Below are positions 49,596 through 51,989 of a stretch of DNA of 64,000 nucleotides, one piece after another. The stretch spans positions 5,146 through 69,145 of the forward strand of contig JAPUGV010000222.1 of NCBI GenBank assembly GCA_027298025.1, in the 5' to 3' direction. The DNA comes from Chloroflexota bacterium (GTDB taxonomy: Bacteria; Chloroflexota; Anaerolineae; Anaerolineales; E44-bin32). The stretch's first letter is position 1, and each line of letters starts with the position of its first letter. The translations under genes were made by a program, and so were the position numbers. The notes beneath the pieces were generated by a model that worked only from the letters and a program-made list of their open reading frames with translations, did not search any database and was not told the origin of the DNA.

Positions 49596-50381
49596 TCATG
49601 CGACTTCCCAGCATTGGTAAAGGCCCAATCGGCCGTTCTCTCCATCCGAACGATATTCTTGGGCCACCCGATAGCCGGCCTCATCGGCAAGTTTATGGAG
49701 CTCGTCCTCCGTAAAGTGGTGGACATAACGCACCCCGCGGCCACCTTCACGCCAATCCACCAAATAGTCTCCCTCGTCAACTTCATCTTTCCCCAAATCC
49801 ACGGTCTCCCATGGCACAACCCGATCCCGGAGACGCGGGCTCGCCAGAAAATCCCACACCGAGACCGCCACGCAGCATTCGGCACTTAAAAGTGCTCTGA
49901 TTGCGATTGCGGTCGATGTTCGCAACTCCGTGGTGGGTAGATGGTGAAGGACCGCGAAGGCAAATGCCCAGTCGAACTGACTCGATCTTCCCGCATTACC
50001 TGGCCCTGAGGCCGGGTCTTCCCTAAGCAGAGTTCGCGCGGTCTCGGGCCACTCATCGTCGCTCAGGTCGGCCAATCCGAACTGGTAGCGCGGCGGTTGC
50101 AACGGCTCGGAGATCGATTCCAAAAGCGGGCGGCTTGCGTCCAGTCCCACATACCGTCCGGAAAAACCGCGCTCCCTGAGCTCCTCGGCCAACGCACCAT
50201 GTGCGCAGCCGATATCGAGCACGTTCGCGTCTAAGCGCACTGACTCGAGAACTCGAACGACACCTGGCTGCAGACGCCCACGGGTAACCCGGAAGGGTTG
50301 GGCAAAGCTCTGATAGAATCCGCGGTTAATGCTAAGCAGACGTTCGACGACTTCTCTTCGCACGAGCACCTCACGAGGCAC
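49596..50381 (-). CDS. class I SAM-dependent methyltransferase with Trm9-like sequence blocks
   Basis: 261 aa with a GTG start. The SAM motif is VLDIGCAHGALAEEL. It also carries FAQPFRVTRGRLQPGV, FDWAFAFAVLHHLPTTELR, RDRVVPW and RYVHHFTEDELHKLADEAGY. Confidence 0.8.
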   Translation of the reverse strand: MPREVLVRREVVERLLSINRGFYQSFAQPFRVTRGRLQPGVVRVLESVRLDANVLDIGCAHGALAEELRERGFSGRYVGLDASRPLLESISEPLQPPRYQFGLADLSDDEWPETARTLLREDPASGPGNAGRSSQFDWAFAFAVLHHLPTTELRTSTAIAIRALLSAECCVAVSVWDFLASPRLRDRVVPWETVDLGKDEVDEGDYLVDWREGGRGVRYVHHFTEDELHKLADEAGYRVAQEYRSDGENGRLGLYQCWEVA

Positions 50382-51989
50382 AAGCGGATTATAGCGGTGG
50401 CCCAGGACTGGTACGAAGCCCGTAAGTACACACCCGCGAAGCTCAGCCTTGCGCGCGAGATTCTGGTGGAAGTACGCGCCGGTCAGAAGGTTTCAAAGGC
50501 CGTGCGCGCGCACCCTCTCCCAGAGGGGGGCTACGTTGGCAAGCACGTGCTGGTACACGCTTACCGGGAGCTGACCGAGGCCGGCACATGGGAGTTCGAA
50601 GCGCAGCTGCTGAGCCGCATTCGCATGAAACCCACACGGACGCTATCCGGTGTCACCACCGTCACCGTACTCACGAAGCCTTACCCGTGTCCCGGAAAAT
50701 GCATCTTCTGTCCCACCGATGTGCGCATGCCCAAGTCGTATCTGCCGGACGAACCTGGAGCGATGCGCGCCCTCCATCATAAATTCGATCCATTCGACCA
50801 GACGGCAGCCAGATTGGCGGCGTTGGAAGCCATTGGGCACCCAACAGACAAAATCGAATTGCTGATATTGGGAGGGACCTGGAGTTCCTACCGTGACGAT
50901 TACCAGGAATGGTTCATCCAGCGCTGCCTGGATGCCATGAATGGATTTGAGTCGTCCACCTTCATCGAGGCTCAAGAGGCGAACGAGGCGGCAGGACACA
51001 AGAACGTTGGAATGGTCATCGAGACTCGCCCAGATCACGTGTCTCTCGCCGAAATCGCTCGATTGCGGGCGCTGGGCGTCACAAAGGTTCAGCTCGGAGC
51101 CCAAAGCCTCGACGACCGTATCCTTGAACTGAACGCACGCGGCCATACGGTGGCCGAGACCCGAGAGGCCGTGCGCTTGCTCCGAGCAGCTGGATTTAAG
51201 ATCGTGCTGCACTGGATGCCGAACTTGCTGGGCTCCACACCCAAATCGGACCGCCACGACTTCACTCGACTCTGGGACGATCGAGATCTGCGGCCGGATG
51301 AGATCAAGATCTACCCATGCCAGTTGCTTGAGAATGCCGAGCTTTATGAGTACTGGGAGCGGGGCGAATACCAGCCGTACTCGACCAACGAACTCATCGA
51401 GCTCATCGCCGACATCAAGCCTACGATCCCTGAATACTGTCGCGTTAACCGAGTGATCCGGGACATTCCTTCCACCAATGTGGTGGCCGGGAATAAGCGC
51501 ACAAGCCTGCGGCAGGATATTCATGACGAGATGAGGCTGCGAGGAACACGCTGCCGCTGCATTCGTTGCCGCGAAGTTCGTGGCGAGAAGGTGCAATGGA
51601 GCGCACTGCAGCTCGATGACTTCTCCTACGAAGCCGGTGGGGCGGAGGAACACTTTCTCACATTCACTGCGAGCGGCGACCGGCTGGTGGGCTTATTACG
51701 ACTTAGCTTGCCAGGCCCAGCCTCTCCGTGCATAGAGCTGCGCGATCTCGGGCAGGCGGCGATCGTGCGTGAGGTGCATGTTTACGGTCAGTCGCTTCAG
51801 GTCGGGGCGGATCAGTCCGGAGCCGCCCAGCACATCGGGCTAGGCACACGCCTCATGATGAAAGCCGAGGCTATTGCCCGTCGCAGCGGCTACCGCAGGT
51901 TGGCAGTGATCTCGGCACTGGGCACACGGGGCTACTATCGGAAGCTCGGCTATGAGCTGGGCGAGACCTACATGGTCAAGCGTCTTTGA
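50298..51989 (+). CDS. elp3: Elp3-type radical-SAM / GNAT acetyltransferase (tRNA U34 carboxymethyl-type modification enzyme homolog; start uncertain)
   Basis: The ORF contains [29 protein letters not shown] (a CX3CX2C radical-SAM cluster), a radical-SAM body ([25 protein letters not shown]) and a C-terminal GNAT ([42 protein letters not shown]). Possible starts are TTG 50298, GTG 50397 and ATG 50625. Confidence 0.85.
   Translation: [563 protein letters not shown]

Follow-up and report, generated by a model that had tools for sequence, protein, structure and literature searches.

Overview of the elp3 Locus

The stretch of DNA analyzed here, referred to below as the window, comprises 64,000 nucleotides (nt) of a Chloroflexota bacterium (NCBI GenBank assembly GCA_027298025.1, contig JAPUGV010000222.1, positions 5,146 to 69,145 of the forward strand). 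It carries a gene for a stand-alone homolog of the Elongator subunit Elp3 and, transcribed divergently from it, a gene for a class I S-adenosylmethionine (SAM)-dependent methyltransferase resembling Trm9 (Table 1). The methyltransferase is 261 amino acids (aa) long when read from a GTG codon at 50381, or 255 aa from an alternative GTG at 50363, and its gene lies 15-33 bp upstream of elp3.

The longest possible open reading frame (ORF) for Elp3 extends from a TTG codon at 50298 to 51989 on the plus strand and encodes 563 aa. These were the limits given in a previous sequence-only reading of this DNA, in which the frame, the strand and the end were right, but the start was placed about 99 nt too far upstream. 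The nearest Elp3 homologs are about 530 aa long and span 94% of the 563-aa query. The conserved columns of the family alignment begin with W38 of the long ORF; the resemblance over residues 1-33 is limited to a few over-long ORF calls, and on its opposite strand the DNA of these residues codes for the conserved N-terminus of the divergent methyltransferase. Because of the length of the homologs, the onset of conservation and this antisense overlap, the GTG codon at 50397 is most likely the true start. All of the motifs quoted in the sequence-only reading were found in the translation of the ORF: in the numbering of the 563-aa frame, the substrate-proximal 18-residue block lies at residues 111-128, the cysteines of CPGKCIFCP are residues 131, 135 and 138, and the 42-residue segment of the Gcn5-related N-acetyltransferase (GNAT) domain occupies residues 512-553. 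Unless the ORF is mentioned, residue numbers below refer to the 530-aa protein.

Table 1. Coordinates of the features of the elp3 locus in the window.
Feature	Position	Strand	Description
tRNA-Ser(UGA), tRNA-Ser(GCU), tRNA-Arg(GCG) cluster	49198..49502	-	ARAGORN
Trm9-like class I SAM methyltransferase gene	49596..50381	-	Pfam Methyltransf_23/25/12/11
TATAAT -10 box	50388..50393	-	Read from the sequence; intergenic region 50382-50396
Elp3 coding sequence, most likely start	50397..51989	+	GTG start, 530 aa
N-terminal extension, residues 1-76	50397..50624	+	Predicted folded helical module; absent from the Dehalococcoides mccartyi protein (DmcElp3)
Radical SAM domain	50688..51239	+	PF04055, E 5.4e-15
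CX3CX2C [4Fe-4S] motif CPGKCIFC	50688-50711	+	Residues 98-105
Radical_SAM_C domain	51294..51536	+	PF16199, E 3.5e-22, 78.7 bits vs cutoff 31.9
CRCIRC three-cysteine motif, interdomain linker	51552..51569	+	Residues 386-391; corresponds to the DmcElp3 Zn site
Lysine acetyltransferase (KAT)/GNAT acetyl-CoA domain	51597..51953	+	Acetyltransf_1, E 2.8e-06, 28 bits vs cutoff 20.7
Acetyl-CoA motif QHIGLG	51828-51845	+	Residues 478-483

Identification of the Gene Product as Elp3

The sequence-only reading had attributed the full Elp3 architecture to the ORF, and the profile searches bore this out. ELP3 (TIGR01211) was the best-scoring profile: the match, with positions 44-522 of its 522 covered, reached 514.8 bits, well over the curated cutoff of 350 and far from anything expected by chance (E 2.2e-154), and the Pfam domains Radical_SAM, Radical_SAM_C and Acetyltransf_1 all exceeded their gathering scores. 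HemN-like and other radical-SAM enzymes had been named in the same reading as possible better matches; families of the HemN/HemW/HemZ type reached 15-33 bits against cutoffs of 200-1100. The second-best NCBIfam match was MnmL/YtqA (TIGR01212), a bacterial radical-SAM protein of tRNA modification, which shares part of the radical-SAM barrel and Radical_SAM_C with the window protein (ORF residues 236-412). Membership of this family was rejected, as the score was 61.8 bits with a cutoff of 180 and the match does not extend past ORF residue 412, leaving the KAT domain uncovered.

Conservation was counted in an alignment of 40 Elp3 homologs in which both of the bacterial types described below were included. 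The Fe-S cysteines C98, C102 and C105 and the linker cysteines C386, C388 and C391 were invariant (40/40), and so was the acetyl-CoA motif QHIGLG, including Q478, H479, G481 and G483. The key residues of DmcElp3, K77, K193, E386 and Y441 (PMC6367351), correspond to K152, K268, E459 and Y513 of the window protein and were kept in 40, 40, 39 and 40 of the 40 sequences, respectively.

The best solved relative by sequence was DmcElp3 (5l7j, E 5.3e-122), and the archaeal Elp3 of Methanocaldococcus infernus (MinElp3, E about 2e-119) and the human, mouse and yeast proteins (E about 1e-88 to 1e-92) were matched as well. The alignment to the KAT domain of DmcElp3 extends through the final residue, and the GNAT region could be aligned over its whole length with the KAT domains of Elp3 from bacteria, archaea and eukaryotes, in agreement with its assignment in the earlier reading. 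When the AlphaFold2 (AF2) model of the protein, with a predicted local distance difference test score (pLDDT) of 88.8 and a predicted template modeling score (pTM) of 0.84, was compared with the PDB by Foldseek, the top 11 matches were all Elp3 (E 1e-46 to 7e-39, with template modeling scores by target, TMt, of 0.81-0.94 for the predicted model), and the next radical-SAM family appeared at an E-value of 1e-7. The gene product is almost certainly Elp3. Elp3 itself is a known and already annotated family, the close homologs being labelled Elp3 by both NCBI and JGI, and the finding as first written is in this respect an ordinary one.

The product name that NCBI attaches to TIGR01211 is [quoted passage not shown]. 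The nucleoside 5-carboxymethylaminomethyluridine (cmnm5U) is the product of MnmE/MnmG, and the name looks chemically inconsistent with the Elp3 product given in the literature, 5-carboxymethyluridine (cm5U).

The N-Terminal Module and Comparison With Known Elp3 Proteins

DmcElp3 (PDB 5l7j, 5l7l, 6ia6) is, like the window protein, a stand-alone Chloroflexota Elp3 with the same radical-SAM and KAT architecture. The CX3CX2C cluster and the three-cysteine Zn motif are present in both, and a divergent gene for a Trm9-like methyltransferase is found directly upstream in both. However, DmcElp3 has 459 aa and begins about two residues before the KxxRTxSG block, its residue 1 aligning with residue 76 of the 530-aa protein, so that the window Elp3 has 76 residues more. 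The first ~63 residues of this N-terminal region lie outside the TIGR01211 match. The region is moderately conserved within the family, and the AF2 model contains five predicted helices in it, with block pLDDT values of 75-92 over residues 11-70. In the structural comparison, the coverage of the query was highest against the tRNA-bound human and yeast Elp3 (template modeling score by query, TMq, of 0.85 for 8ptx_C and 0.81 for 8asw_C), compared with 0.68-0.78 for the remaining Elp3 structures. The N-termini of Elp3 proteins have been tied to tRNA binding (PMC7663514, PMC6367351), and the weak tRNA affinity and activity of DmcElp3 have been ascribed to its very short N-terminus (PMC7663514). 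A role in tRNA binding is likely for the modeled 76-residue module.

The archaeal proteins (M. infernus and M. jannaschii; 6ia8, 6iaz, 6iad) are also stand-alone, without other Elongator subunits, and the fold of the window protein matches theirs with a TMt of 0.92. MinElp3 has an extended N-terminus of comparable length (aa 1-75), and PMC7663514 cites the in vitro reconstitution of cm5U formation for this archaeal group. MinElp3 differs in its cluster motif, which is CX4CX2C (CPHGKCIFC) instead of CX3CX2C, and the host is here a bacterium. Sequence identity of the window Elp3 is 44.5% with DmcElp3 and 40-41% with MinElp3. The two bacterial types share 41-45% identity with one another, and each of them shares 40-41% with archaeal Elp3; therefore, they are about as distant mutually as they are from the archaeal proteins.

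Eukaryotic Elp3 (8ptx, 8asw, 6qk7) has the same two-domain fold and chemistry, and it is on its tRNA-bound human and yeast structures that the predicted N-terminal module overlays best. By contrast, it shares 31-37% identity with the window protein, lacks the three Zn-site cysteines (PMC6367351) and requires Elp1, Elp2, Elp4-6 and the Kti proteins, none of which is encoded near the window gene. Pfam annotation of the whole window detected no homologs of Elp1, Elp2, Elp4-6 or Kti12, so the statement in the sequence-only reading that no other Elongator subunits are nearby holds. MnmE/MnmG were not found in the window by the same annotation.

Linkage of elp3 to a Divergent Methyltransferase Gene

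A genome scan with one genome per species confirmed at least 569 stretches encoding Elp3 relatives, and the linkage counts given here refer to the best 80 of them. In 75 of the 80 loci, the gene next to elp3 on its upstream side was a divergently oriented homolog of the methyltransferase gene, usually with a gap of 16-250 bp; in three of the five loci without a linked methyltransferase, the sequence ahead of elp3 is shorter than 260 bp. This linkage was maintained as the identity of the methyltransferase fell to 40-50%, while the rho, M23 and NicO-like neighbors vanished. The pairing was also found in Dehalococcoidia. In D. mccartyi (CP019867) and two other members of this class (3/3 loci), a divergent methyltransferase of 218-224 aa, with 21-26% identity to that of the window, is encoded 44-102 bp upstream of elp3. 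In both groups, the coupling of the two proteins was seen as genomic linkage only.

The clustering of elp3 and trm9 was noted in 2008 for Sulfolobus (PMC2584109; PMC6144793). No statement of such clustering for bacteria was found in the literature search, and no mention of the D. mccartyi pairing was found in the literature searched. The sequence-only reading had proposed that the genes around elp3 would be informative, and the Trm9-like nature of the divergent neighbor confirms this expectation.

Conservation of Trm9 Active-Site Residues

The sequence used for yeast Trm9 (ScTrm9), the tRNA cm5U34 carboxyl methyltransferase, was validated against the solved Trm9 of Yarrowia (E 4.5e-71) and against the published residue numbering. 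The comparison of the bacterial family profile with ScTrm9 by hhalign gave a probability of 97.9% (E 6.6e-13), and the AF2 model of the window methyltransferase had a pLDDT of 89. Several of its homologs are named TRM9 by JGI, and the name used by NCBI is "class I SAM-dependent methyltransferase". Like the Trm9/ALKBH8 methyltransferase domain (5cm2), it is a class I SAM methyltransferase with shared active-site residues, and its gene is coupled to that of Elp3, as is the Trm9 gene in Sulfolobus (PMC2584109). On the other hand, the long insert rich in lysine that the yeast protein carries is absent from it.

Mutation of eight Trm9 residues, R29, D72, H116, W145, W168, R241, Y243 and N271, abolishes or strongly reduces the activity; R29, H116 and R241 have been proposed to position the carboxylate of cm5U, W145 and W168 to stack on nucleotides, and N271 to read O2 and N3 of U34 (PMC4678810). 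In 70 bacterial homologs of the Anaerolineae type, six of the eight (R29, D72, H116, W145, W168 and R241, which are R34, D81, H147, W176, W191 and R218 in the window protein) were kept in every sequence, and the same was true of Y18, H115, Y242 and H244; D72 is the aspartate that binds SAM. The D. mccartyi methyltransferase keeps all eight (R24, D69, H117, W146, W164, R173, Y175 and N212), and the position of Y243 is a tyrosine in the three Dehalococcoidia neighbors, which match yeast Trm9 with E-values of 1e-11 to 1e-14. The Dehalococcoidia residues were read from pairwise global alignments; a joint MAFFT alignment with Trm9 misaligned both termini.

Two small proteins were observed in the Dehalococcoidia loci. 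One is a zinc-ribbon protein of 72-75 aa with the pattern CPxC...CWKC, encoded near the pair in all three loci (L081 3423-3650, L082 3387-3605, L083 3967-4185) with 45-53% identity. It was considered as a candidate for Trm112 and rejected, as it has no PF03966 match and only sub-threshold generic zinc-ribbon matches; no homolog of it was found in the window or in the 80 Anaerolineae loci. Genes for the tRNA queuosine enzyme QueH and for a GNAT protein lie just upstream in all three loci. The other small protein has 101-105 aa and the pattern CKECPWY...C (L081 9508-9813, L082 6395-6712, L083 6387-6698; 56-67% identity, no Pfam match). In two of these loci its gene follows elp3 immediately, in the opposite orientation; in D. 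mccartyi it is separated from elp3 by about 3 kb.

The Intergenic Region

A GGATTATA motif is conserved between the divergent start codons, with a perfect TATAAT on the minus strand. ATTATA was present between both genes in 67 of 69 loci, with a background of 0.23 per kb. The conserved TATAAT was detected by alignment and counting and not by a consensus scan; no complete -35/-10 promoter showed up in the intergenic region in a scan for the sigma-70 consensus. In the window, TATAAT lies 6 nt upstream of the GTG at 50381, and in at least 53 of 70 loci the start codon follows it by 6-7 nt. Because this spacing is typical of leaderless mRNAs, it suggests that the methyltransferase mRNA is leaderless or has a very short leader, with TATAAT as its putative promoter. 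The alignment of homologs equally permits the GTG at 50363, with GAGG in front of it. For elp3, a weak -10 element could be provided by GATTAT on the plus strand.

Distribution of Bacterial Elp3

The best 80 of the at least 569 relatives were 64-90% identical to the window Elp3, and 79 of these 80 were labelled Chloroflexota, mostly Anaerolineales. The exception was a 3.7-kb contig (L006; JAIWHF010000210.1) labelled as the metagenome-assembled genome (MAG) of a Methanosarcinales archaeon. Its Elp3 is 71% identical to that of the window, and both the divergent methyltransferase gene and the intergenic motif of the Anaerolineales loci are present beside it. Since the gene arrangement is that of the bacterial loci, this contig is probably a mis-binned Chloroflexota sequence. 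A search seeded with DmcElp3 detected a second large family of 456-482 aa, from Dehalococcoidia or Chloroflexota where the source names them.

Bacterial Elp3 was described in a 2020 review as confined to Dehalococcoides (PMC7663514), and a paper from 2026 refers to Elp3 in "numerous bacteria" (PMC13315578). The view taken in the sequence-only reading, that stand-alone Elp3 occurs in only a few bacteria, is outdated because of the number of relatives detected and the existence of the second family. No paper naming both Elp3 and Anaerolineae was found in the literature search.

A Putative Two-Step Pathway of Wobble Uridine Modification

The enzymatic activities, the formation of mcm5U and the tRNA targets discussed in this section are those that would be expected from the family membership, fold, gene linkage and conserved catalytic residues described above. 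The mechanism has been established for archaeal and eukaryotic Elp3, and by analogy the same steps can be proposed for the window protein from its conserved residues. The KAT domain would bind acetyl-CoA, and the radical-SAM [4Fe-4S] cluster held by C98, C102 and C105 would cleave SAM to a 5'-deoxyadenosyl radical. This radical would abstract a hydrogen from the methyl group of the acetyl moiety, and the resulting radical would add to C5 of the wobble uridine (U34), yielding cm5U. The helical N-terminal module, absent from the Dehalococcoides enzyme, probably helps to hold the tRNA. The methyltransferase would then most likely methyl-esterify cm5U to 5-methoxycarbonylmethyluridine (mcm5U), in which case the wobble pathway of this Anaerolineales bacterium, and of Chloroflexota in general, would be of the archaeal/eukaryotic type. 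Judging from its sequence, the window Elp3 very probably makes modifications of the cm5U type. With good but somewhat lower confidence, we regard it as a tRNA-modifying enzyme that is paired with a Trm9-like methyltransferase in a two-step wobble pathway without other Elongator subunits. For the specific conversion of the Elp3 product to mcm5U by the neighbor, the balance is only modestly favorable.

Several observations weigh against this pathway. DmcElp3 is the sole bacterial Elp3 that has been assayed, and its activity was very weak; moreover, according to the 2020 review there was no direct evidence for xcm5U34 derivatives in bacteria bearing Elp3 (PMC7663514). In two of the 80 loci (L053 and L073), elp3 has no methyltransferase gene within 6 kb. 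In the 70 methyltransferases of the Anaerolineae type, the position of Y243 is occupied by V (63), I (4) or A (3), and N271 aligns to Q256 (Q in 63/70) across a 9-residue insertion before the last strand, in a column that is alignment-dependent. Trm9 was not the first match to either methyltransferase family in the PDB: in the profile search with the window family it was second (2.8e-8) behind 3sm3 (1.1e-9), an uncharacterized archaeal methyltransferase without the HH motif, and with the D. mccartyi protein it ranked seventh. In Foldseek it was fourth among many near-equal class I methyltransferases, hundreds of which had E-values below 1e-10, so that the fold search is non-discriminating: small-molecule methyltransferases, CypM and CcbJ among them, are not set apart from Trm9 by it. 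Trm9 works with the activator Trm112 in eukaryotes and in Haloferax, and neither Pfam annotation of the window ORFs nor a six-frame motif scan revealed a Trm112 (PF03966) in the window.

The differences at Y243 and N271, the rank of Trm9 in the sequence and fold searches and the negative Trm112 searches, together with the generic label that NCBI gives to the methyltransferase homologs and with a zinc-ribbon ORF rather than a Trm112 near the Dehalococcoidia pair, would fit an Elp3 that is a cm5U34 synthase beside a methyltransferase that does not act on its product. The pair would then be held together by the shared compact promoter region, or the methyltransferase would have another RNA, a protein or a small molecule as its target, and the final wobble nucleoside would be cm5U, 5-carbamoylmethyluridine (ncm5U) or another derivative. 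We consider this unlikely, although it is the most serious of the alternatives. It is at odds with an adjacency that persists in 75 of 80 loci while the other neighbors change and the methyltransferase itself diverges, and also with the recurrence of the pairing in Dehalococcoidia with a divergent and even more Trm9-like methyltransferase. The residues with a proposed role in holding the carboxylate (R29, H116, R241) or in nucleotide stacking (W145, W168) are, moreover, invariant. As generic methyltransferases score equally well or better in the searches, more weight was given to the active-site residues and to the gene linkage than to the rank of Trm9.

The older view of Elp3 as a histone acetyltransferase, under which the window protein would be mainly a protein lysine acetyltransferase and not a tRNA enzyme, could call upon the intact GNAT/KAT domain and upon PDB entries still named "Histone acetyltransferase, ELP3 family". 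It is very improbable, however: Elp3 proteins of bacteria, archaea and eukaryotes hydrolyze acetyl-CoA only in response to tRNA, and histone or tubulin peptides do not have this effect (PMC6367351), the strictly conserved radical-SAM cysteines would be needless in a simple acetyltransferase, and the gene is linked to that of a tRNA-type methyltransferase. The chance is slighter still that the protein is another radical-SAM enzyme, HemN/HemW- or MnmL/YtqA-like, with a fortuitous GNAT-like tail, or that the DNA is mis-assembled and archaeal, as the weak secondary matches to TIGR01212 and the HemN-type families or the Methanosarcinales label of one contig might suggest. Each of those matches falls far short of its curated cutoff and is confined to a portion of the radical-SAM/Radical_SAM_C region, while the full-length alignment to Elp3 structures takes in the KAT domain; the flanking genes (rho, tsf, frr, dnaE) are bacterial, and all but one of the best 80 loci are labelled Chloroflexota. 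With the top fold matches being exclusively Elp3, this explanation is already refuted.

Significance of the Elp3/Trm9-Like Module

The chemistry of Elp3 has been studied intensively because defects of Elongator cause human neurological disease, and the stand-alone prokaryotic proteins have been the workhorses of this mechanistic work. What is added here is a pair of Elp3 and a Trm9-like methyltransferase conserved across Chloroflexota, an N-terminus that is missing from DmcElp3, and a testable prediction of the product. A second, full-length type of bacterial Elp3 is widespread in Anaerolineales and, if the module proposed below is active, this Elp3 with its long N-terminus would surpass DmcElp3 as a bacterial model, being more active and better behaved. 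The near-constant pairing with a Trm9-like methyltransferase leads to a concrete prediction for the end product of bacterial Elp3, namely mcm5U or 5-methoxycarbonylmethyl-2-thiouridine (mcm5s2U). The neighbor, now annotated as a class I SAM-dependent methyltransferase, could accordingly receive a specific putative function.

In a broader sense, the back-to-back arrangement may represent an ancient module of Elp3 and a Trm9-type enzyme in Anaerolineae and Dehalococcoidia, D. mccartyi included, that would give a complete mcm5U34 pathway of the archaeal and eukaryotic type if active. We judge this proposal to be evenly poised. An active module would mean an mcm5U34 pathway in bacteria without the accessory subunits of Elongator, and it may work without Trm112 and may replace MnmE/MnmG.

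Genomic Setting and Additional Observations

The window includes dnaG, rpoD, groES/EL, rpsB, tsf, pyrH and frr, the nuo operon and a gene for a Lon-like protease, and in addition uppS, cdsA, rho and dnaE and genes for two LysM-M23 peptidases, an ABC transporter and an extracytoplasmic function (ECF) sigma factor. No anomaly of the guanine-plus-cytosine content was detected, and elp3 sits in an ordinary bacterial core chromosome.

The tRNA cluster lies 93 nt downstream of the methyltransferase gene and shares its strand. These three tRNA genes also come after the methyltransferase gene in L001, L005, L007, L010, L012, L013 and L015, but not in the wider family; since it is kept only in the closer relatives, it was rejected as a functional clue and treated as lineage-level synteny. 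In yeast, tRNA-Ser(UGA) is an Elongator substrate; the tRNA-Ser(UGA) beside the methyltransferase carries U34 and could be a substrate. In another locus (L071), tRNA-Glu(UUC), a classic eukaryotic substrate for mcm5s2U, was called at 5108-5189, so that about 13 nt are shared with the 3' end of the methyltransferase match (5177-5887); this may be a coincidence.

On the other side, a gene for a His-rich membrane protein similar to NicO/DsbD_2 (52025-52720, plus strand) begins 36 nt past the stop codon of elp3 and may be co-transcribed with it. Beyond it lies an ORF of 137 aa (52862-53275, minus strand) with no family match. A homolog of the latter is found near elp3 in the three closest loci (L001-L003) alone, and one of the NicO-like gene in L003 alone; because of this limited occurrence, both were placed outside the conserved module.

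Two tandem paralogous genes on the plus strand (46882-47979 and 48002-49081) encode proteins of 365 and 359 aa with the same layout of LysM and Peptidase_M23 domains, which looks like a local duplication. The 833-aa Lon-like protease (3872-6373, plus strand) combines an archaeal-type LonB AAA domain and lid with LonC helical and Lon_C proteolytic domains, and its architecture is that of LonC and not that of the canonical bacterial LonA. The ORF for DnaE, the alpha subunit of DNA polymerase III (57809-61867, plus strand), has 1352 aa. Its Pfam domains stop near residue 1120, and the ~230 C-terminal residues have no family match and are partly of low complexity, being rich in A, P, E and S. Since the listed TTG start adds about 60 residues before the PHP domain, the true start of this gene may be further downstream. 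Finally, in the region 55618-57753, the gene for the ECF sigma factor (55618-56202, plus strand) is followed by an overlapping ORF of 176 aa without a Pfam match, possibly an anti-sigma factor, and then by a gene for a 442-aa membrane protein with a faint match to bactofilin-like repeats (E 0.044).

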